64,000 bases of DNA from an uncultured Flavobacteriaceae bacterium (GTDB taxonomy: Bacteria > Bacteroidota > Bacteroidia > Flavobacteriales > Flavobacteriaceae), in contig CALSSO010000007.1 in NCBI GenBank assembly GCA_943789035.1, positions 109,319 to 173,318 on the forward strand, read 5' to 3'. The translations under genes and the position numbers were made by a program. Shown here piece by piece: positions 46,737 to 59,819 of the stretch. The first letter of the stretch is position 1. Every line of letters starts with the position of its first letter. A model generated the notes under the pieces. The model worked only from the letters and a program-made list of their open reading frames with translations, did not search any database and was not told the DNA's origin.

Positions 46737-48017
46737 TTAATTCCGAAGTTTCTGAGCCAATTGTTGAGTCAACGATTTACGACTGTAAGCCTCTAATCCT
46801 TTTGAATCTACTTTTAATTGTTGAGTTTTATACGCTTCAAAATGCTGCAATAAAAGTGTGCGGAGTGCTGCTGCTTCGTCATATCTAAAATAAGTCCCAG
46901 ACCGTGTTTGATTTAAAATGGTCTCAATGTCAGAAGTCTTTGGCCCAATAGCGATTATAGGACGTTTAGAACCCATGTATTCAAATAATTTTCCGGGAAT
47001 AATGTATTCCGTTTCCTTAGAATCTTCTTCAATAAGCAATAACAGTTGCGTTTTTTTCTGATAGTCTAAAACAGCGTTGTGAGGAATATATCCAATGGTA
47101 AAAATATAGCTCTCCAACCCATAACTTTGAATCGTTTCTAATACCTCTGTACTAAGAGAACCAATAAGGTTTAGCTGAAACGCCGCCGCAAAATCTACGG
47201 ATTCTTTTATTAAGTCTGATAACACCTTCCATAAAACAAAAGGATTTCGTCCTTCGAGTAAGGATCCAATATGGGATAAGGTGAACTTAGAATCTAAGGA
47301 ACTGTCGTCTGTGATTTGAAAATCAAACCCATTCGTGAGAACCGTTATTGGTTGGGTTGTTAACTCTAAAAATAGTGTTTTTGTTTTTGGACTTGTTACC
47401 AGTAATTCATCTGCATTTTGAAGCACAACAGCTTCTAAGTTTTTATGTTTTTTTTGTGCAAAAGAACGAAGTTTTAATTTTTTATGATATCCTATATGAG
47501 TCCAAGGATCTCTAAAATCAGCCACCCATTTAAGAGCATGTTTTTGTTTTAACTGCAAACCGATCAAATGTAAACTATGGGGTGGTCCGGTGGTGACAAT
47601 GGTATCAATTTGCTGGGATTTAATGTATTCCGACAAAAAAGAAACCGAAGGGCGTACCCAGGAAATACGTGCATCTGGAATGAAAAAATTACCTCTGATA
47701 AAAAGGAGTGCTTTTTCTATAAAAGATTGTTTTTTGGGATTTGAAATGAGTCCTTTAGACAAATCCGATGTTTTGGACTTCGAAAAAAAATGTGCCCATT
47801 TATAAGGTTCGCTTATCGGAGTTTTTAAAACTGTTAAATCAGAACGCAGCTCCGATACCAATGAAGTATCTGTAAGGGGATAATTGGGTGCATCAGGACA
47901 ATACACAATGGGTTCTATGTCAAAATCGGGTAAGTATTTTACGAACTTCAACCAACGTTGAACACCCGGCCCACCAGCAGGCGGCCAATAATACGTAATG
48001 ATGAGTACCTTTTTCAC
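46737..48017 (-). CDS. GT4 glycosyltransferase
   Basis: YYWPPAGGPGVQR, DFRDPW and PGKLFEY motifs. Confidence 0.9.
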   Translation of the reverse strand: MKKVLIITYYWPPAGGPGVQRWLKFVKYLPDFDIEPIVYCPDAPNYPLTDTSLVSELRSDLTVLKTPISEPYKWAHFFSKSKTSDLSKGLISNPKKQSFIEKALLFIRGNFFIPDARISWVRPSVSFLSEYIKSQQIDTIVTTGPPHSLHLIGLQLKQKHALKWVADFRDPWTHIGYHKKLKLRSFAQKKHKNLEAVVLQNADELLVTSPKTKTLFLELTTQPITVLTNGFDFQITDDSSLDSKFTLSHIGSLLEGRNPFVLWKVLSDLIKESVDFAAAFQLNLIGSLSTEVLETIQSYGLESYIFTIGYIPHNAVLDYQKKTQLLLLIEEDSKETEYIIPGKLFEYMGSKRPIIAIGPKTSDIETILNQTRSGTYFRYDEAAALRTLLLQHFEAYKTQQLKVDSKGLEAYSRKSLTQQLAQKLRN

Positions 48018-50422
48018 GATGGTTTTCTATAAATTAGAATTCCTTGACCTAAAATTAGCAATACCAATAAAATACTACTAACTAAACTAATATTTGAACC
48101 TGTTGTCACAACGGAGGGGTTAAACTTAAATACTACGGTATGCGTCCCTTTAGGAATTTCTAAGCCACGAAGGATATAGTTTACGTTGTAATGTTTTACT
48201 TCTACACCATCAATAGTGGCGTTCCAACCATTCTTATAGTAAACCTCCGAAAATACTGCAAAGCCATCTTCAGTGGTCTTGGTTTCATAAACCAAATGAT
48301 TGAGTTTATAATCAACTAATTGAATTGAAGCCATGGAATCTTTCACAAAACGTTTGGATTTCAAATCTGAAGCATTGGCTATTGCTGTTGTTTTTGTATT
48401 TATTTTATCCAACGCTAAAATTTCTTCATCTGGCGTTTCAAATGATTCAATTGCATCTACAAACCAAGCATTTCCATTGGTATTTTCATTTTCAAAATAC
48501 AGGACTTCACCTTCTTTATTTTGATAAATAATATACTTGGTATTGAGCATATTCAGAACTTCAAAGTTAGTTTTGTCGATATGAAATTCTTGTACCGCTT
48601 TAAAACGACGCAATTTTGCAGCATGATATCCTTCTATTGAGTTGTGAAAATAAGACGATTTAGTAGAATTATCAGACCTATCAAGAACTCTAAAATTTGT
48701 GGTGTCTTTTAATAATTCTTTATCAATTGTACTTGCCTGATACGGACGATCTACTTTTAGTGCTGAAACAAAATTGTCATTATTCACATAACGACGGTCC
48801 ACCCCTACCAGATCCAAAATAAGAAGGAGTCCCAAAATAACGATTGTAGTGTTTTGAGTAATTTTTTGTTTGAGATAGATAAAAATCAATCCTCCAACTG
48901 CTAAGACCAATAACAAAGTTCGCAATGCATCTTCTGTAAAAATAGCACTGCGATCTAACCTTAAAGCTTCTACAAAAGAAGCTCCATAATATTCTTTAAA
49001 TTGTCCATCACTGCTTCCAACAAAATCAAATAAGCTGTTTTTGAAAATTAAAAATACTACTGTTAATCCTGCAACAATTCCCAATGACTTTTTTAAGGCC
49101 TCTAATTTCGTTTTTGAGCTTCGATCTTTATGAAATAATTGCGCCAATCCTAAGGCAGCTAACAAAGGGATACACAGTTCTAAAAGGACTTGAATGGAAC
49201 TCACTGCTCTAAACTTATTATAGAGTGGTACATAGTCAATAAAAAAATCAGTGAGAAACGATAGGTTTTTTCCATAGGATAATAACAAAGACATCAAAAC
49301 ACCAGCAATTAACCACCATTTGAAACGGCCTTGGTATAGAAACAATGCCAACACAAAAAGAAAAATCACAACGGCTCCAATGTAAGCGGGTGCTTCCACA
49401 ATAGGTTGATCGCCCCAATACATGGGTGCTTGTTTAGATTCCTGAAGTGCTTGTATAGGCGTTGCTCCCAAAGCTCTGAAAGCCTTGTAGGTCTCCGAAT
49501 CTTTTCCAATATCTTCTCTATTTCCTCCGCCCATAAATCGAGGAATGAACAGATTAAATGTTTCTAATTTACCATAACTAAATTGCGTGATATAGTCCTT
49601 ATCCAATCCTGTTGTTTGCTCTTTAGGACTGCCATCGGGGTTGATTGTCAATTCACTCTTTCCGCGGGTGCTTTCTTTGGCGTATTCGCTAGTGGCCATC
49701 AAATTAGTGGCATTCATAGAAAACGCAAAAACAGCGGCTATAAACAGAACAGCAGTAGCTTTAAAAAATGCGGGAAGTTCTTTTGATTTGATTGCATGTA
49801 CTAAATATGTAATCCCTAAAATTATAATTAAAAACCCTAAATAGTAAGTCATTTGTGGGTGGTTGGTCACAAGTTCTAAACCAGACGCTAGTGCCGTGAT
49901 TATAAACCCTAAATAATAGCGTTTTTGGAAGGTCAAAATAATTCCAGATAATACTAGCGGCATATAGGCAATTGCATGGGCTTTGGCATTATGTCCTACT
50001 CCTAGAATGATAATCAAATAGGTAGAAAACCCGAACGAGAGGGCTCCCAAAATAGCAATTTTATAATCGATTTTTAAAACTAGTAATAAGATGTAGAATC
50101 CTAAAAAGTATAAGAAGAGATAATCGGCTGGACGGGGTAAAAAACGAAGTGCTAAGTCCAGTTTCTTAATATAATTGTGAGGGTATTTAGCACCGAGTTG
50201 ATAGGTTGGCATGCCCCCAAAGGCACTGTTGGTCCAATAGGATTCGGCGTCATAAGCGTTTCGAAAGTCGATGTGCTGTTTGGCCATTCCTGTGTATTGG
50301 ACAATATCACTTTGATAGATTTTTTTTCCTTTTAGAACGGGATTGAAATATAAAACAGCCACAAGAGCAAACCCTAAAATCACTAAAAAATGGGTGCCAA
50401 TTTGTTTTAAACTCAGGTTCAT
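48014..50422 (-). CDS. YfhO-family polytopic membrane protein (GT-C-like)
   Basis: QSDIVQ, WTNSAFGGMP, many TMs, C-terminal SEVYY.NGW...G.H domain. Confidence 0.85.
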   Translation of the reverse strand: MNLSLKQIGTHFLVILGFALVAVLYFNPVLKGKKIYQSDIVQYTGMAKQHIDFRNAYDAESYWTNSAFGGMPTYQLGAKYPHNYIKKLDLALRFLPRPADYLFLYFLGFYILLLVLKIDYKIAILGALSFGFSTYLIIILGVGHNAKAHAIAYMPLVLSGIILTFQKRYYLGFIITALASGLELVTNHPQMTYYLGFLIIILGITYLVHAIKSKELPAFFKATAVLFIAAVFAFSMNATNLMATSEYAKESTRGKSELTINPDGSPKEQTTGLDKDYITQFSYGKLETFNLFIPRFMGGGNREDIGKDSETYKAFRALGATPIQALQESKQAPMYWGDQPIVEAPAYIGAVVIFLFVLALFLYQGRFKWWLIAGVLMSLLLSYGKNLSFLTDFFIDYVPLYNKFRAVSSIQVLLELCIPLLAALGLAQLFHKDRSSKTKLEALKKSLGIVAGLTVVFLIFKNSLFDFVGSSDGQFKEYYGASFVEALRLDRSAIFTEDALRTLLLVLAVGGLIFIYLKQKITQNTTIVILGLLLILDLVGVDRRYVNNDNFVSALKVDRPYQASTIDKELLKDTTNFRVLDRSDNSTKSSYFHNSIEGYHAAKLRRFKAVQEFHIDKTNFEVLNMLNTKYIIYQNKEGEVLYFENENTNGNAWFVDAIESFETPDEEILALDKINTKTTAIANASDLKSKRFVKDSMASIQLVDYKLNHLVYETKTTEDGFAVFSEVYYKNGWNATIDGVEVKHYNVNYILRGLEIPKGTHTVVFKFNPSVVTTGSNISLVSSILLVLLILGQGILIYRKPS

Positions 50423-50434
50423 ATGGACTGTTAT

Positions 50435-50701
50435 TTATTCAATTTCTTCATAATCGACATATTCTCCAACATTGTTATTTGAAGATTTAGAATTTGGCAT
50501 TTTATCAATACTAATCTCTCCTTCCTTTTGGGTTGGTGGTTTTGGAGCCGATTGATTTCTAAAATGGGATTCTGCTTTTTTTGCAATCGACTTCACTATA
50601 AATGGTGCCAATAGGCGCATCAGATATTTGAAAATGGTATAAACCAAAACAAAAATGAGGAGTGTTTTTAGCAATCCAATAAAAGACGCAGTTTGTAACA
50701 T
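50435..50701 (-). CDS. DUF4834 small membrane protein
   Basis: Single TM; C-terminal GEYVDYEEIE. Confidence 0.8.
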   Translation of the reverse strand: MLQTASFIGLLKTLLIFVLVYTIFKYLMRLLAPFIVKSIAKKAESHFRNQSAPKPPTQKEGEISIDKMPNSKSSNNNVGEYVDYEEIE

Positions 50702-50841
50702 CGGTAGATTATTTTTTCAAAAATACAATTCTTATTTATATTATATAAATTATTATATAAAATGATTACACACAAGAAAAAAGAGTACAATTAATTAAAA
50801 GTATAAAAAAAAATATGTAGGTTTGGTAAAAGTCTATTTAA

Positions 50842-51831
50842 ATGAAAATTCTATCTAAACTTATTACTTTTATAGCTCTGTGTTGTGTATGCAGCACTGC
50901 TCAAGCACAATATACCGATGTTATAAACTCGAATCGACCAGGCGCCTCCCAAAGTGCGTTTTCTGTGGGAACCAAAGTATTACAGTTTGAAGTCGGTCCG
51001 TATATGATTAAAGAAAAACGAGAACTTTATCCAAAGTACGAAGTTTCTGGATATGGGGTTGATTTTGCAGCCCATTATGGTTTTTGGAAAGAAGCTCTAG
51101 AATTAAATATCCAAGGGACGTTTCAAAAAGATACACAAACCTATCCCTCCTCGATTGTGGATGTAGAGTATGGTCGTGCAAACTTTAAAAACCTCAATAT
51201 TGGAGCAAAATATTTGGTGTATGACCCTCATAAAAACAAAGACAATAAACCAAACTTGTATAGCTACCATGCTAATAGAGGTTTTAAATGGAGTAGTTTG
51301 ATTCCCGCCGTATCTGTAATTGCTGGTGTGAATTATGACACTAAAGACAATCCATATACAGCTCCAACTGTTGAAGGACTTAGTTATCGTGGAGGTTTAA
51401 TTACACAAAACAATTTTAATGGAGGTTGGGTCTTTATTACAAATTTTATAATGGACCGCATTGGAAGTGACCAAACAGATTTTCATTACATTCTTACACT
51501 GACACACTCCTTCAATCCAAAATGGGTAGTTTTTGGAGAAACACAAGGCATAAAAAGTGAGTTTTACGCAGATAATTTGCTTCGATTTGGAGGCGGTTAT
51601 TTACTGAATAAGAATTTACAATTTGATACGGCTTTGACATTTAATACCAAAAACACACCATCCGTTTTAAGTTTAAGTTTTGGTGCATCGTACCGATTAG
51701 ATCGCCATAAGGATAAAAACAACGTTGATAACGGGACTTCTGCAAAAGACCAAGAGAAACGAAAATCGCGCTTCAAAAATGAAGATAAAAGAAAAAAGAA
51801 GAAGAGAAGTACTAATTTTGAAGAGGACTAG
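50842..51831 (+). CDS. Putative outer-membrane beta-barrel ('transporter', MetA-pathway-like)
   Basis: Signal peptide; INSNRPG...VG...LQFE; alternating beta-strands ending SFGASYR. Confidence 0.7.
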   Translation: MKILSKLITFIALCCVCSTAQAQYTDVINSNRPGASQSAFSVGTKVLQFEVGPYMIKEKRELYPKYEVSGYGVDFAAHYGFWKEALELNIQGTFQKDTQTYPSSIVDVEYGRANFKNLNIGAKYLVYDPHKNKDNKPNLYSYHANRGFKWSSLIPAVSVIAGVNYDTKDNPYTAPTVEGLSYRGGLITQNNFNGGWVFITNFIMDRIGSDQTDFHYILTLTHSFNPKWVVFGETQGIKSEFYADNLLRFGGGYLLNKNLQFDTALTFNTKNTPSVLSLSFGASYRLDRHKDKNNVDNGTSAKDQEKRKSRFKNEDKRKKKKRSTNFEED

Positions 51832-51837
51832 AACAGC

Positions 51838-52953
51838 ATGATTACCATTAAAGAAGCGGTTTCCAAAAAGGAGATAAAACAATTTGTGACATTCCCTTTT
51901 TCACTCTATAAAGACTCCAAGTATTGGGTTCCCCCAATCATTAGCGAAGAGATTAAAATATTTAATAAAAACACCAACCCTGTACTCCAAAATGCGGATG
52001 CTCAATTGTTTCTAGCTTATAAAAACAATACGATTGTAGGGCGTGTTGCCGCCATTATTAATTGGACAGAAATTGGACCTAAAGGCAGTAATAAAGTTCG
52101 ATTTGGGTGGATGGATATGATTGATGACATAGAAGTCACAAAAGCTTTATTGGACACTGTAGAGTCCATTGGAAAAGCGAATAACTTAAACTATATGGAA
52201 GGGCCAATTGGGTTTTCTAACTTAGATAAGGTAGGTGTTCTTACCTATGGCTATGACGAGATTGGTACCATGGTTTCTTGGCACAACCATCCCTACTATG
52301 TGGAGCACTTAAATCAATTAAATTTCAAAGTTGAAAAAGAATACCTAGAACACAAACATCAGTTTAGTGATATTGAAATTGAAAATTCTAATCTACTTGA
52401 AAAGGTTATTAAAGAGCGTTACAACTTAAAGGCTTTAAATTTTACGAGCACAAAAGATCTGATGCCGTATGCAGATAAAATGTTTGATTTATTTAATGAA
52501 AGTTATGCATCCTTGTCGTCATTTGTGGCAATTACAGACATTCAAAAAGCATTTTTAAAGAAGAAGTTTTTAAACTTCATAAACCCAGAATACATTAAGT
52601 TTGTGGTAAATGAGGCCGATGAATTAATTGCTTTTGGGGTTGTAATGCCTTCTTTTGCAGAAGCCTTACAAAAAACAAAAGGTAAGTTATTTCCTTTTGG
52701 GTTTTTGCATATTTTAAAAGCTAAGAACTCAAAAAAAATAAATTTTTATTTAATTGGCATCCATCCTGAATATCAAAAAAAGGGCGTCCATTCCATCCTA
52801 TTTAGTGCATTTCATAAAACTTTTAAAGAGAAAGGAATTCTAGAATGTCGAAGAACTCCAGAATTGGCAAATAACTTAGCAGTTCAAAAATTATGGCGCA
52901 ATTTTAATCCTGTATTGATTAAAAAACGATGTACGTATCGAAAAGATTTGTAG
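51838..52953 (+). CDS. Tandem-GNAT N-acyltransferase, bacterial ceramide-synthase-like
   Basis: FPFSLYK...WVPP, VGRVAA, RFGW, GPIGF, HNHPYY and IGIHPEYQKKG (GNAT motif A). Confidence 0.7.
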   Translation: MITIKEAVSKKEIKQFVTFPFSLYKDSKYWVPPIISEEIKIFNKNTNPVLQNADAQLFLAYKNNTIVGRVAAIINWTEIGPKGSNKVRFGWMDMIDDIEVTKALLDTVESIGKANNLNYMEGPIGFSNLDKVGVLTYGYDEIGTMVSWHNHPYYVEHLNQLNFKVEKEYLEHKHQFSDIEIENSNLLEKVIKERYNLKALNFTSTKDLMPYADKMFDLFNESYASLSSFVAITDIQKAFLKKKFLNFINPEYIKFVVNEADELIAFGVVMPSFAEALQKTKGKLFPFGFLHILKAKNSKKINFYLIGIHPEYQKKGVHSILFSAFHKTFKEKGILECRRTPELANNLAVQKLWRNFNPVLIKKRCTYRKDL

Positions 52954-52955
52954 AA

Positions 52956-54218
52956 CTACTCACCCATTGCAGCTGCAACAGAAGCCGAAAGACGCTTATA
53001 AACTCCTTTTCCTAAGCGTTCTCTAATCACTGAAAATGCTTTTAACGTTTCGTCCACATCTTCTAACGTATGCATAGAGGTTGGTATTAACCTCAGCAAT
53101 ATTAAGCCCTTAGGAATAACAGGATACACTACTATTGAACAGAAAATTCCATAATTTTCACGAAGGTCTTTTACCAAGGCCATCGCTTCAGGAATACTTC
53201 CTTTTAAGTACACAGGAGTTACACAACTTTGGGTGGATCCTAGGTCGAATCCTCTCTCGCGTAATCCCGATTGCAATGCATTTACAATCTTCCAAAGGTT
53301 TTCTTTAAGTTCAGGCATGGTACGAATCATATCCAAACGTTTAAGAGCGCCTTTTACCAACTGCATTTGCAAGGATTTTGCAAACATTTGTGAGCGTAAG
53401 TTATATTTTAAATAATCAATAATTTCTTGATCAGCAGCAATAAAAGCACCTGTACTTGCCATTGATTTGGCAAAGGTTGCAAAATACACATCAATCTCAT
53501 CTTGAACGCCTTGTTCCTGTCCTGCACCTGCTCCCGTTTTTCCAAGCGTTCCAAAACCATGTGCATCATCAACTAAAAATCTAAAATTAAATTTGTCCTT
53601 TAATGCTGCAATTTCTTTTAGCTTCCCTTGTTCGCCTCGCATTCCAAAAACACCTTCTGAAATCACTAAAATACCTCCACCAGTATGTTCGGCCATTTTA
53701 GTCGCACGTTCTAGGTTTTTTTCTAAGCTTTCAATATCGTTGTGTTTGTAAGTAAAACGTTTTCCCATGTGTAGCCGAACCCCATCAATAATACAAGCAT
53801 GCGAATCCACATCATAAACAATAATATCATCCTTTCCAACCAACGCATCAATTGTGGACATGATTCCTTGATAACCAAAATTTAAGAGATAAGTCGCTTC
53901 TTTACTTACAAATTCTGCTAATTCGTTTTGTAATTGTTCATGTAGTGAGGTATGACCAGACATCATTCGAGCGCCCATTGGATAGGCAGCCCCGTAATCA
54001 TTGGCAGCTTCGGCATCGACTTTTCTAACTTCAGGATGATTTGCAAGTCCTAAATAGTCATTTATACTCCATGTGATGACGTCCTTACCTTGAAATTTCA
54101 TGCGGTTGGAAATCTGACCTTCCAGTTTTGGAAACACAAAATAACCTTCTGCTTGGCTTGCCCATTTACCTAAAGGGCCTTTGTCTTTATATATTTTTTC
54201 AAATAAATCTCTCATCAT
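52956..54218 (-). CDS. PLP alpha-oxoamine synthase; probable cysteate-fatty acyltransferase (SulA/CapB)
   Basis: NDYLGL, DDAH, TFAK251S and MFAK281S; downstream of a cysteine-synthase-like gene. Confidence 0.8.
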   Translation of the reverse strand: MMRDLFEKIYKDKGPLGKWASQAEGYFVFPKLEGQISNRMKFQGKDVITWSINDYLGLANHPEVRKVDAEAANDYGAAYPMGARMMSGHTSLHEQLQNELAEFVSKEATYLLNFGYQGIMSTIDALVGKDDIIVYDVDSHACIIDGVRLHMGKRFTYKHNDIESLEKNLERATKMAEHTGGGILVISEGVFGMRGEQGKLKEIAALKDKFNFRFLVDDAHGFGTLGKTGAGAGQEQGVQDEIDVYFATFAKSMASTGAFIAADQEIIDYLKYNLRSQMFAKSLQMQLVKGALKRLDMIRTMPELKENLWKIVNALQSGLRERGFDLGSTQSCVTPVYLKGSIPEAMALVKDLRENYGIFCSIVVYPVIPKGLILLRLIPTSMHTLEDVDETLKAFSVIRERLGKGVYKRLSASVAAAMGE

Positions 54219-54339
54219 AATTCCTAGTTAGTTTGCGATACAAAACTATATAATAATATTCTTAATACATAATAATTTAAGCAATTAATCAGAAACGAAT
54301 ATTGTGTTGATGATTTGGTATTAGAAATTTGAGAGTGAT

Positions 54340-55388
54340 TTACTTAATAAATTCAATGCCTTGTGGCAGCGACTTCATTTCTTTTATCAAAAAAACCTTG
54401 GTCTTCCATCCATTGGTCATTAAATACTTTACTCATGTAGCGTGATCCGTGATCTGGGAAAATTAAAACAACAACATCCGTAGGTTTAAAAGCACCTTGT
54501 TGCTTGAAGTTGTTTTACGGCCTGAACAACCGCTCCGGATGTATAACCTGCAAACAAACCTTCTGTTTGCGCCAGCTCTCGAGCAGTATGCGCGCTTTCT
54601 TCGTCCGTTACCTTGATAAATTCGTCGATTGAATCAAAATCGGTAGCTGTAGGAATTAAATTTTTCCCAAGTCCTTCAATACGGTAGGGATATATTTCAT
54701 TGGGATCAAACTCTCGTGGTTTCGTGGTATTTTTTCAGAACCGAACCATAAGCATCTACTCCTATGATTTTAATATCTGGATTTTGTTCTTTTAAATATT
54801 TTGCAGCCCCTGAGATGGTTCCTCCAGTTCCGCTACATGCAACCAAATGCGTGATCTTACCTTGCGGTCTGCTGCCATAACTCTGGCCCTGTAGTTTTGT
54901 AATGTGCCTCTGTATTTAAACTATTAAAGTATTGGTTTATATATACTGAGCCTTTAATTTCTTTGTGCAAACGTTTGGCGACTTCGTAATAGGAACGGGG
55001 GTCATCTGCATTTACATGTGCCGGGCATACATATACTTTTGCTCCCATACTCTTGAGCATGTCAATTTTATCTAAAGATGATTTTGAACTGACCGCTAAT
55101 ACACATTTGTACCCTTTAATGATGCTGACCATTGCAATACTAAAACCCGTGTTACCAGAAGTTGTTTCAATAATCGTATCTCCTGGTTTTAGAATGCCTT
55201 TCTTTTCAGCCTCTTCAATAATATGAAGCGCAATACGGTCTTTAGAGGATTGTCCTGGATTGAAAGCATTCTAACTTGGCTATGAACGTCCCCGGAGAAC
55301 CCGACAAGATGGTACTTAACTTCACTAGAGGCGTGTTCCCAACGAGCTCCAATACATTATCAAATATCAATTTATCTTTATTTACCAA
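54340..55388 (-). pseudogene. PLP cysteine-synthase-family gene (probable cysteate synthase, CapA-like) broken by single-base insertions
   Basis: Reassembles as [46 protein letters not shown] (~347 aa) after removing bases near 55268, 54862, 54717, 54506 and probably 54382. Likely sequencing errors. Confidence 0.8.
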
Positions 55389-55432
55389 ATTTGTGATTTT
55401 TGTGTGACAAATTTACACTATTTTTTTCAAAC

Positions 55433-57565
55433 CTATTTTATAATGGATTCTAGATCCAATAAAAAAGCATACTCCGCAGCCACTTCTTTCAAGGCTTCAA
55501 AACGTCCAGAAGCACCGCCATGACCTGCCTCCATATTGGTTTTAAGATAGAGTTGAGATGTGTTTTTGTTTTGAGATCGTAAGCGTGCAACCCATTTGGC
55601 TGGCTCCCAATATTGAACTTGGGAATCGTGAAGTCCCGTAGTTACTAACATATTTGGGTAGAGCTTATTGGTGACATTGTCATAGGGCGAATACGATTTC
55701 ATGTACTCATAATAGTCTTTTTCATTTGGGTTCCCCCATTCATCATATTCTCCTGTAGTAAGCGGAATACTATCGTCCAACATAGTTGTTACCACATCCA
55801 CAAAAGGAACCTGAGCAACCACTCCATTGTATAATTCAGGAGCTAAATTTACAACTGCTCCCATTAATAAACCACCTGCACTGCCACCCATAGCATACTG
55901 ATGCTTGGCAGTAGTGTACTTATTTTCAATCAAATATTTTGAACAATCTACAAAATCTGAAAAGGTATTTTTCTTGTTAAATAATTTTCCATCTTCATAC
56001 CATTGACGGCCCAAATATTCGCCCCCTCTAATATGAGCAATTGCAAAAATAAAACCACGATCTAATAGACTCAGTCGAACCGTTGAAAAATAAGGATCTA
56101 TTGTGTTTCCGTACGAACCATACGCATACAATAACAATGGAGTTTCGGACGATTTTTCAGTATCCACATGGCGTATCAATGAAATAGGGATTTGAGTTCC
56201 ATCCGCAGCCGTTGCCCATAAGCGTTCTGAAGTGTAGTTTTCTTTTTTAAATTTACCTCCTAATACTTCTTGTTCTTTTTTGATGGTTTTTGTCTTAGTA
56301 ACCATATCGAAGTCAATTATAGATGATGGAGTTGTTAAAGACTGATAGCCATATCTTAAAACGCTGGTATCAAAATCAATATTAGTGGTGGTATAAGCCG
56401 TATAGGTTTCACTCTCAAAAGGAAGGTAATAACTGCCTGATCCATCCCAACGTTTTATGTGGATTTGATTCAGGCCATTTTCACGTTCCGAAACCACCAA
56501 AAAGTCTTTAAATATTTCGATGTCTTCAAGTAATACATTTTCTCGGTGTGGAATTACATCGTTCCAGTATTTTTTTTGAGTTTGAGTTTCAGAAGTTTTA
56601 GAGAGTTTAAAATTTTGAGCCCTATCGGCATTAGAAACGATATAAAATGAATCTTCGTAATGTGAAATACTATACTCTAAACCGCGTGTTCTGGGTTGAA
56701 ATACTTTAAAATCACCATCGGGAGTGTTGGCATTTAAAATTTGATATTCAGTCGTTAAGGTGCTGTAACTCACAATAACTAGATATTTTTTAGACTTGGT
56801 TTTATAAACGCTCACTCCAAAAGTATCATCAGTTTCTTCATAAATTAATTCATCTGATTTTTGATCGGTATTCAGTCGGTGTTTGTAAATTGCTTCCGAT
56901 CGTAAGGTTGTTTCATCTTTCTTTGTATAAAACAGAGTTTTATTGTCATTTGCCCACGTACTCCCCCCTGTCGTATTTGAAATCTCATCCTTTAAAACTG
57001 TATTGGTTTTAAGGTCTTTAATATGCAATGTGTATTGACGTCTGCCTGTGGTGTCTATGCCATAAGAAACCAAATCATTATTGAGGTTTATGTTCAACCC
57101 TACCAATCTAAAATATGAATGATCTTTAGCCATTTCATTACAATCAAACAAAAGTTCTTCCTCTGCTTCTAAGGTTTCCTTTTTTCGAGTGTAGATGGGA
57201 TAATCTTTCCCTTTTTCATATTTGGTGATGTACCAATACCCATTGTACTTATAAGGAACAGAACTGTCATCTTCTTTGATTCTTGACTTCATTTCTTCAA
57301 ATAAAGATATCTGAAACTCCTTTGTGTGCGTCGTATGGGCATTATAATAATCATTTTCTTTGTTGAGATAATCAATCACTTCCGGATTTTCTCTATCGTT
57401 TAACCAATAAAATTCATCAACACGTACATCGTCATGAATTGTTAAATTTTTAGGAATTTGTTTTGCTAATGGAGCGTTTGGTAATTCAGACATTGAGTTT
57501 TGAGTCTTAGTATCACAAGAAAAAAGTGAACTTATTAAAATGAGAGATAAGAATTGGCGTTTCAT
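55433..57565 (-). CDS. ptrB: Oligopeptidase B (S9A), lipoprotein
   Basis: YGSYG, GGSAGG, HDSQV and AGHGG motifs; lipobox LFSC. Confidence 0.92.
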   Translation of the reverse strand: MKRQFLSLILISSLFSCDTKTQNSMSELPNAPLAKQIPKNLTIHDDVRVDEFYWLNDRENPEVIDYLNKENDYYNAHTTHTKEFQISLFEEMKSRIKEDDSSVPYKYNGYWYITKYEKGKDYPIYTRKKETLEAEEELLFDCNEMAKDHSYFRLVGLNINLNNDLVSYGIDTTGRRQYTLHIKDLKTNTVLKDEISNTTGGSTWANDNKTLFYTKKDETTLRSEAIYKHRLNTDQKSDELIYEETDDTFGVSVYKTKSKKYLVIVSYSTLTTEYQILNANTPDGDFKVFQPRTRGLEYSISHYEDSFYIVSNADRAQNFKLSKTSETQTQKKYWNDVIPHRENVLLEDIEIFKDFLVVSERENGLNQIHIKRWDGSGSYYLPFESETYTAYTTTNIDFDTSVLRYGYQSLTTPSSIIDFDMVTKTKTIKKEQEVLGGKFKKENYTSERLWATAADGTQIPISLIRHVDTEKSSETPLLLYAYGSYGNTIDPYFSTVRLSLLDRGFIFAIAHIRGGEYLGRQWYEDGKLFNKKNTFSDFVDCSKYLIENKYTTAKHQYAMGGSAGGLLMGAVVNLAPELYNGVVAQVPFVDVVTTMLDDSIPLTTGEYDEWGNPNEKDYYEYMKSYSPYDNVTNKLYPNMLVTTGLHDSQVQYWEPAKWVARLRSQNKNTSQLYLKTNMEAGHGGASGRFEALKEVAAEYAFLLDLESIIK

Positions 57566-58711: not shown

Positions 58712-59819
58712 ATGATAACACACGATCACATTAAAGATCTTTTTGAGCGCCTTGGAGCGTTAAGGAGGTATCTTTGACTTAGATGCCAAACGCATCGAAA
58801 TTCAAAATGAAGAAGAAAAAACCTTTTCGCCTGATTTTTGGAACGATTCGAAGGCCGCTGAATTACTCATGAAATCGTTACGAGTCAATAAGAAATGGGT
58901 AATCGATTTCGAAAAAGCACAAACCTACAACGAAGATTTAGAAATTTTATTTGATTTTTATAAAGAGGGCGAAACAACAGCTGAAGAAGTTGAAACACAA
59001 TTTGAGCTTGCTTCCAATTTTTTAGAAGATCTTGAATTCAGAAATATGCTTTCTGAGGACGGGGATGGACTCAGTGCTGTATTACAAATTACTGCGGGTG
59101 CTGGAGGTACCGAAAGTTGTGATTGGGCGAGTATGCTCATGCGGATGTACATCATGTATGCCGAGAAAAATAATTTTAAAATCAAAGAGCTCAACCTTCA
59201 AGATGGCGATGTGGCAGGAATCAAAACCGTGACACTTCAAATTGAGGGAGATTTTGCTTTTGGATGGCTTAAAGGAGAAAACGGCGTACATCGTTTGGTG
59301 CGAATCTCTCCTTTTGATAGCAATGCCAAGCGGCATACAAGTTTTGCGTCTGTTTATGTCTATCCGCTTGTGGACGATACCATTGAAATCGATATCAACC
59401 CAGCGGATATTGAAATTACTACGGCACGTTCGAGCGGCGCTGGGGGACAAAACGTGAATAAGGTTGAAACAAAAGTACAATTAACTCACAAACCTTCTGG
59501 GATTCAAATTTCATGTTCTGAAACACGCTCACAACATGACAACCGATCAAGAGCAATGCAAATGCTAAAATCGCAATTGTATGAAATTGAACTCAAAAAA
59601 CAATTGGCACAGCGCGAAGATATTGAAGCAGGTAAAATGAAAATTGAATGGGGAAGTCAAATCCGGAATTATGTTATGCATCCCTACAAACTTGTAAAAG
59701 ATGTACGAACGGCAGAAGAAACTGGCAATGTTGATAATGTAATGAATGGAGAAATTACTCCTTTCCTAAAAGCCTATCTAATGCTTATGGGGCAAAAAGA
59801 AAAACAAGAGACCTTATGA
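58712..59819 (+). CDS. prfB: Peptide chain release factor 2 with programmed +1 frameshift
   Basis: [21 protein letters not shown], then AGGAGG-TAT-CTT-TGA-C (58763-58778). The +1 frame joins the ORF carrying SPF and GGQ motifs. Confidence 0.97.

Follow-up and report, generated by a model that had tools for sequence, protein, structure and literature searches.

The present analysis concerns a pair of adjoining genes, encoding a predicted outer-membrane beta-barrel and a tandem-GNAT acyltransferase, that lie beside a capB gene in an uncultured Flavobacteriaceae bacterium (GenBank assembly GCA_943789035.1, contig CALSSO010000007.1, positions 109,319 to 173,318). The window, i.e. the whole stretch of DNA that was analyzed, comprises 64,000 nucleotides (nt), and all coordinates below refer to it. 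Sulfonolipids rank among the major lipids of the Bacteroidota outer membrane, and have been linked to gliding motility, to rosette induction in choanoflagellates and to TLR4 signalling in the gut. The described enzymes of their synthesis are CapA/Cys, CapB/CFAT/SulA and CapC/KCR, three steps that were identified between 2021 and 2024. An earlier note, made from the sequence of the window alone, had proposed that the GNAT protein performs a further step, N-acylation, and that the barrel may handle lipid or precursor traffic. The locus contains the following features, each given with its strand and the evidence for it:

50818..50825, + strand: TAGGTTTG, a Bacteroidota-type -7 box, 16 nt before the start codon of the barrel gene (consensus match only)
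50842..51831, + strand: COG4313/PF13557 beta-barrel gene, 329 amino acids (aa) (open reading frame, Pfam, AlphaFold2, Foldseek)
51838..52953, + strand: tandem-GNAT acyltransferase gene of the bCerS/YghO family, 371 aa (fold, profile, spt operons, tree, residue signature)
52956..54218, - strand: capB, predicted cysteate-C-fatty acyltransferase (CFAT), 420 aa (BLAST bit scores, pocket residues)
54340..55388, - strand: capA remnant of the cysteate synthase type (PALP family), probable pseudogene (tblastn pieces, conspecific contigs)
55428..55459, - strand: promoter-like site TTG-N21-TAGGTTTG, upstream of the capA remnant and capB (consensus match only)

The barrel and GNAT genes are separated by 6 nt, and the GNAT gene ends 2 nt from the stop codon of the convergent capB; these open reading frames and spacings are exactly as the earlier note had given them. 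The conservation of the arrangement was examined in 61 Flavobacteriaceae genomes (one per genus), 55 of which carry the GNAT gene. The barrel and GNAT genes adjoin, barrel first, in 52 of these 55 genomes, while capB lies in convergent orientation less than 1 kb away from the GNAT gene in 38, which exceeds what would be expected by chance. The promoter boxes were located by a script-based pattern search (pattern TANNTTTG). The gaps between the two genes in relatives are short and contain no conserved promoter box, and a TAGGTTTG box precedes the barrel gene; for these reasons, the barrel and GNAT genes are predicted to be co-transcribed, and this is likely from the gaps and the promoter pattern. 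A TANNTTTG box at position 51813, which precedes the start of the GNAT gene by 18 nt, was considered as a promoter of that gene itself and rejected, because the same box was found in only 2 of 20 relatives; on the same grounds it was not counted against co-transcription. Sigma-70 promoter and terminator scans around the locus gave background levels, and no Rfam RNA family was detected within 50000-56000.

The product of the 371-aa gene was described in the earlier note as a double-GNAT protein and likened to bacterial ceramide synthase (bCerS); the double GNAT and homology to bCerS were both borne out. The AlphaFold2 model is of high confidence (predicted local distance difference test, pLDDT, 94.8), and the best fold matches found in the PDB with Foldseek are tandem-GNAT proteins (2wpw, 5kf1, 7q3a and MshD). 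Pfam yielded only a weak C-terminal match (Acetyltransf_1, residues 250-354), and the acyl-CoA motif is located at IHPEYQKKGVHS (about residues 308-319). A phmmer search against PDB sequences returned weak single-GNAT matches only, and no NCBIfam model matches the family.

The link to the Caulobacter enzyme was made through the sequence of Escherichia coli YghO, whose gene is listed as the orthologue of CC_1154, encoding the ceramide N-acyltransferase (PMC9386255). A profile built from 70 homologues (A1) was aligned with YghO over 364 columns (hhalign probability 100%, E 4.3e-50), and the window protein itself is 26% identical to it (BLASTP, E 2e-34). In a non-K-12 E. coli, yghO is located beside an annotated spt gene, an ACP gene, a gene for a reductase of the epimerase/dehydratase family and an acyl-AMP ligase gene. 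The CerS protein of Bacteroides fragilis was identified by homology to the Caulobacter enzyme, and its deletion results in the accumulation of 3-ketosphinganine (bioRxiv 10.1101/2023.05.23.541633). Since the YghO profile match and the fold agree, and relatives are encoded in spt operons, we consider the membership of the 371-aa protein in the bCerS/YghO/CC_1154 family to be established by sequence and fold. Relatives of the protein in NCBI are labelled "GTP cyclohydrolase", as the earlier note had stated. This identity was rejected: no Pfam or NCBIfam match of such a kind was obtained, and the fold is that of a tandem GNAT.

To place the protein among its relatives, 301 Bacteroidia genomes were surveyed (the tallies include two unpublished genomes, G148 and G226). 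Spt was found in 28 of them, and a GNAT homologue is present in all 28. In 17 of the 28 the homologue is directly next to spt on the same strand, mostly in the order spt-GNAT-reductase, which is how the genes of the bacterial ceramide pathway (Spt, bCerS, CerR) are arranged. Inspection of the neighbourhoods of 20 ortholog-grade homologues from outside the family of the window revealed four in a same-strand operon with spt and a reductase gene. The Spt proteins of these operons score 607-684 bits against NCBIfam model NF047600 (cutoff 640), the reductases (321-336 aa) belong to the NAD epimerase/dehydratase family, and the GNAT homologues encoded in spt-GNAT-cerR operons show 28-36% identity to the window protein.

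When 79 homologues were placed in a tree (midpoint-rooted, from a quick IQ-TREE search), the barrel-linked Flavobacteriaceae GNATs formed a monophyletic group (support 100 in the Shimodaira-Hasegawa-like approximate likelihood ratio test), nested beside the Spt-linked members. A second clade without Spt linkage, D1, has eight members, all from CapB-positive genomes, and seven of these genomes lack Spt. The eighth genome, G322, carries both synthases and a separate Spt-linked GNAT. In one of the D1 genomes, G202, the GNAT gene is two genes away from capB.

Several other arrangements were encountered among the relatives. In the ceramide operons of two loci (L009 in G247 and L011 in G273), spt, reductase and GNAT genes, in this order, are followed by genes for a FabL-like enoyl reductase, a FabA-like dehydratase and a ketoacyl synthase, which suggests that the sphingolipid has a fatty-acid branch of its own. 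At locus L060 (G193:C3:207855-211755), spt and capB are convergent with a single gene between them, so that both long-chain-base synthases are encoded in one place; this 379-aa gene was considered as a GNAT shared by the two synthases, and rejected, as it encodes a pirin-family protein. A second GNAT copy in G246 (L042, contig C1), a clade-C homologue, is located between genes for an MFS transporter and a PAP2-family phosphatase on the same strand, and may belong to a different lipid-modifying module that uses the same enzyme family. In other families the GNAT gene repeatedly has neighbours of 620 aa and 160 aa; these were identified as GyrB/ParE-like and CoaD-like housekeeping genes and discarded as being without functional signal.

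The convergent neighbour of the GNAT gene encodes a 420-aa protein that the earlier note had called capB-like, and this label can be made firmer. The protein scores 709 bits against the crystallised CFAT of Capnocytophaga ochracea (PDB 28eh), 562 bits against SulA of Alistipes (7u7h) and 242 bits against Spt. Furthermore, it retains all ten residues of the cysteate pocket around the pyridoxal phosphate-cysteate adduct (N53, F114, G115, Y116, H140, C142, H220, T248, K251 and K281). These scores and residues mark it as a true CapB/CFAT, i.e. a cysteate fatty acyltransferase.

Within Flavobacteriaceae, the GNAT protein is associated with CapB and not with Spt. Spt was detected in only 1 of the 61 genomes (G005), and the other 60 yielded none. 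G005 encodes two GNATs: the first (60% identity to the window protein) adjoins a barrel gene, while the second (34% identity) starts 44 nt after spt and is followed by a CerR-like gene. In the genome of the window (completeness 83.8%), CapB is the only synthase detected at E<1e-40, and no spt gene was found. From these searches, CapB is the only long-chain-base synthase in the sampled Spt-less Flavobacteriaceae genomes that carry it. Neither the window GNAT, in its own genome, nor its clade, in 60 of the 61 family genomes, was thus found to be partnered by spt and a reductase gene of the CerR type, the neighbour being capB instead. By sequence, then, the protein is a member of the bCerS family, although it does not appear to be a ceramide-pathway orthologue.

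The earlier note had expected co-occurrence with CapB-type synthases, and in this family the expectation stood: CapB is present in all 55 GNAT-positive genomes, and the GNAT is absent from both CapB-negative ones, although these genomes are related and not independent, so the support is weak. Additional information came from the residues of the GPxGF(S/T)-x-LD motif. In the two Spt-linked groups, position 128 is occupied by Asp (7/7) or Thr (10/10), whereas it is Asn in all 22 barrel-linked GNATs and in all eight members of clade D1. The barrel-linked clade is further distinguished by Lys131 (22/22), Lys86 (21/22, the remaining one being Arg) and Glu121. The loss of an acidic residue, together with the added lysines, would be in keeping with a negatively charged sulfonate as head group. 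The GNAT gene was found in all six sampled species of Flavobacterium, a genus known for N-acyl sulfonolipids.

The capA gene had been counted on in the earlier note as part of the system. In this genome, however, it is broken. The region is split into five tblastn pieces in frames -2, -3, -1, -2 and -3, and five single-base insertions set it apart from conspecific contigs (at 54365, 54507, 54716, 54865 and 55266). In relatives, an intact PALP gene of 346-347 aa is located between capB and an oligopeptidase gene, and its length is 347 aa in five independent assemblies of the same population. A comparison of 6.6 kb with the conspecific contigs placed every one of the five single-base indels, as well as 27 of the 68 mismatches, inside the 1.2 kb of capA, where the mismatch rate is ∼3 times the local rate. 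This concentration of indels and mismatches speaks for a pseudogene in decay and not for sequencing errors scattered over the region, and points to a strain in which capA is a pseudogene while capB and the GNAT and barrel genes are intact. Another contig of the same genome carries a PALP paralogue (G000:C8:38803-39777) with 55% identity to the intact CapA-type protein of a relative, and one TAA codon was reported within the match. This paralogue could stand in for the broken capA, or be an ordinary cysteine/cystathionine enzyme.

The beta-barrel claimed for the first gene of the unit was confirmed by three results. The protein matches the whole profile of Pfam PF13557 (5e-27, 95.8 bits, cutoff 22), its AlphaFold2 model contains 12 strands (pLDDT 77.7, moderate confidence), and the fold matches obtained with Foldseek are FapF and the COG4313 channel 4rl8 (TM score ∼0.6). 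A signal peptide is readable in the sequence, followed by a conserved mature N-terminus, QYTDVINSNRPG. The protein can thus be assigned to the COG4313/PF13557 outer-membrane channels. Homologues (E<=1e-8) are confined to the family of the window, where they were detected in 60/61 and in 9/9 genomes, with a single borderline match elsewhere. The barrel ends in a Lys/Arg/Glu-rich tail (about residues 290-329; 51709-51828), the character of which is conserved in 20 relatives (L109-L128), with 35-55 low-complexity Lys/Arg/Glu/Asp-rich residues after the last strand (...SYRFDFH). The tails often close with (I/V)DF(D/N), and a tail of this kind is unusual for an outer-membrane barrel.

The COG4313 family has been implicated in the passage of hydrophobic molecules and includes SphA, the channel through which Pseudomonas aeruginosa takes up sphingosine; transport of hydrophobic substrates is known in this family for TcpY and SphA only (PMC4493636). 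Because SphA is among its members, a long-chain base or a sulfonolipid is a plausible substrate of the barrel, although a rival idea, in which the pair imports and acylates exogenous bases, draws the same support from it. By analogy, the barrel could serve lipid traffic, either in the insertion of lipid into the outer membrane or in the uptake of long-chain bases.

Taken together, CapB is present and Spt absent in nearly all of the sampled Flavobacteriaceae, and the most parsimonious substrate of the GNAT in this family is therefore capnine or its keto precursor. We consider it probable, from sequence and genomic context, that the protein N-acylates capnine or 3-ketocapnine. We infer the substrate, the acyl donor and the order relative to the reductase as follows. 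A cytoplasmic tandem-GNAT of the bCerS family, whose Flavobacteriaceae clade would have lost its link to Spt, would acylate 3-ketocapnine or capnine at the amino group, with a fatty acyl group taken from acyl-CoA or acyl-ACP. The products would be outer-membrane N-acyl sulfonolipids of the sulfobacin/flavocristamide type. Asn in place of Asp128, together with Lys131 and Lys86 by the conserved GPxGF motif, may accommodate the sulfonate head group. Through the COG4313-type barrel, which is probably co-transcribed, the outer membrane may receive or release the long-chain base or the completed lipid. The route to sulfobacin B has been described as having four steps (PMC11211663), and no published assignment of the sulfonolipid N-acylation step was found in the literature searched (papers up to 2026).

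This assignment, as the earlier note had put it forward, is favoured by membership in the bCerS family, by genomes with CapB as the only synthase and by the distinct clade, but the co-occurrence with CapB fails across the class, and several observations weigh against it. CapB-type genes are nearly universal, being present in 272 of the 301 Bacteroidia genomes (E<=1e-110), while ortholog-grade GNATs were found in ∼41 and any homologue in 214. Entire families carry CapB without any detectable GNAT homologue; in f25, for example, all ten genomes carry CapB and none has a homologue, including five genomes that were searched with the profile. Outside Flavobacteriaceae, the GNAT and capB genes are not neighbours, with G202 as the one near-exception, and even at the locus studied here they are convergent and not co-transcribed. 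Three members of the family (Gillisia sp., Salegentibacter agarivorans and Cerina litoralis) have cleanly lost the GNAT gene and keep capB with the barrel gene directly beside it. Two genomes, G087 and G166, contain ortholog-grade GNATs with neither CapB nor Spt. Since CapB-bearing lineages without a homologue exist, the GNAT cannot be the universal sulfonolipid N-acyltransferase of Bacteroidota, and lineages of this kind either use another enzyme for N-acylation or stop at free capnine.

Two other explanations of the locus were considered in detail, both of which we judge to be unlikely. According to the first, the unit serves the salvage or detoxification of long-chain bases: the barrel would import exogenous sphingoid bases or capnine, of algal or other bacterial origin, and the GNAT would N-acylate them in the cytoplasm, independently of synthesis by CapB. 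Such a function would agree with the closer pairing of the GNAT gene with the barrel gene than with capB (52/55 vs 38/55), with the presence of an uptake channel for sphingosine in the barrel family (PMC4493636), with the retention of intact barrel, GNAT and capB genes in a strain whose capA is a pseudogene, and with the possibility of losing the GNAT while CapB persists. However, the barrel persists directly beside capB after such losses and therefore does not depend on the GNAT. Moreover, the presence of the GNAT is nested inside that of CapB in Flavobacteriaceae, and the unit holds no gene for an inner-membrane transporter.

According to the second, the GNAT acylates an unrelated amine (the precursor of an amino-acid lipid, a polyamine or another metabolite), and its adjacency to capB is inherited synteny devoid of functional meaning. 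Family members without Spt or CapB do exist (G087, G166 and YghO of E. coli K-12), the large clades B and C have no lipid context, and the convergent orientation, as well as the limitation of the adjacency to one family and one near case, would be expected of mere synteny. Against this, the nearest relatives in the tree are the enzymes of spt operons, two synthases are paired with two GNATs in both G005 and G322, and Asn128 is common to two separate clades with a CapB context, which makes this explanation doubtful. Finally, the idea that the protein is an ordinary ceramide synthase serving an Spt missed in an incomplete genome, to which its family membership and the completeness of 83.8% lend some support, is highly improbable, since no Spt was found in 60 of the 61 sampled genera, most of whose genomes are 99-100% complete, and the sole Spt-bearing genome has a separate Spt-linked GNAT.

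N-acylation of capnine or 3-ketocapnine thus remains the preferred reading, and the systems most similar to the locus can be compared with it. The GNAT shares family, length and tandem fold with the bCerS/CerS proteins (Caulobacter CC_1154 = CCNA_01212, B. fragilis BF9343_4218 and E. coli YghO), and the same chemistry is expected of it, i.e. N-acylation of a long-chain base derived from an alpha-oxoamine synthase. It differs from them in having no spt/cerR partner, in its capB neighbour and barrel partner, and in forming a clade of its own marked by N128, K131, K86 and E121; the predicted substrate bears a sulfonate instead of a hydroxymethyl group. In relation to the pathway of CapA, CapB (CFAT, SulA) and CapC (KCR), the GNAT gene is located directly beside capB and the capA remnant and its product would supply a fourth step, but it is not among the three characterised enzymes. 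The GlsB, OlsB and OlsF proteins of Bacteroidota likewise N-acylate an amino group for a non-phospholipid membrane lipid, although they form a different family, and the GNAT has no Pfam or NCBIfam match to their models. Finally, the barrel shares with the COG4313/PF13557 channels (Pput2725, TcpY and SphA) the full-profile Pfam match, the 12 strands, the N-terminal segment before strand 1 and the 4rl8 fold. Unlike these channels, it carries a charged C-terminal tail, could not be matched by sequence to the members of known structure and, at the sensitivity of the search, was found in Flavobacteriaceae only.

A few observations concern the surroundings of the locus. The marine metagenomes of a dozen or more studies contain near-identical copies of the stretch. 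Upstream of the barrel gene (46737-50422, - strand), genes for a GT4-type glycosyltransferase and an 802-aa YfhO-like membrane protein overlap by 4 nt, followed by a DUF4834 gene, and the same flanking genes are found in the conspecific contigs. Further along (58869-59819, + strand), the listed open reading frame of prfB (release factor 2) begins at position 48 of the TIGR00020 model; the probable reason for this late start is the programmed +1 frameshift that prfB usually has close to its beginning.

The GNAT is a concrete candidate for the step that makes the bioactive N-acyl species, and a genetically tractable one, since Flavobacterium has the gene. The substitutions in and around the GPxGF motif offer a hypothesis at the level of single residues, in which the scaffold of a ceramide synthase has been adapted from a neutral base to a sulfonated one. 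As the candidate cannot be universal, the CapB lineages that lack a GNAT homologue should possess another N-acyltransferase, unrelated to it. A bolder proposal, which we regard as conceivable but rather improbable, is that the operon constitutes a dedicated two-part sulfonolipid system, in which the GNAT finishes the lipid and the Lys-rich-tailed barrel carries capnine or sulfonolipid into or out of the outer membrane of gliding Bacteroidota, as the first component of that membrane specific for such movement. The pairing with a channel of the SphA family may in any case provide the first lead on how sulfonolipids or their bases cross the outer membrane.

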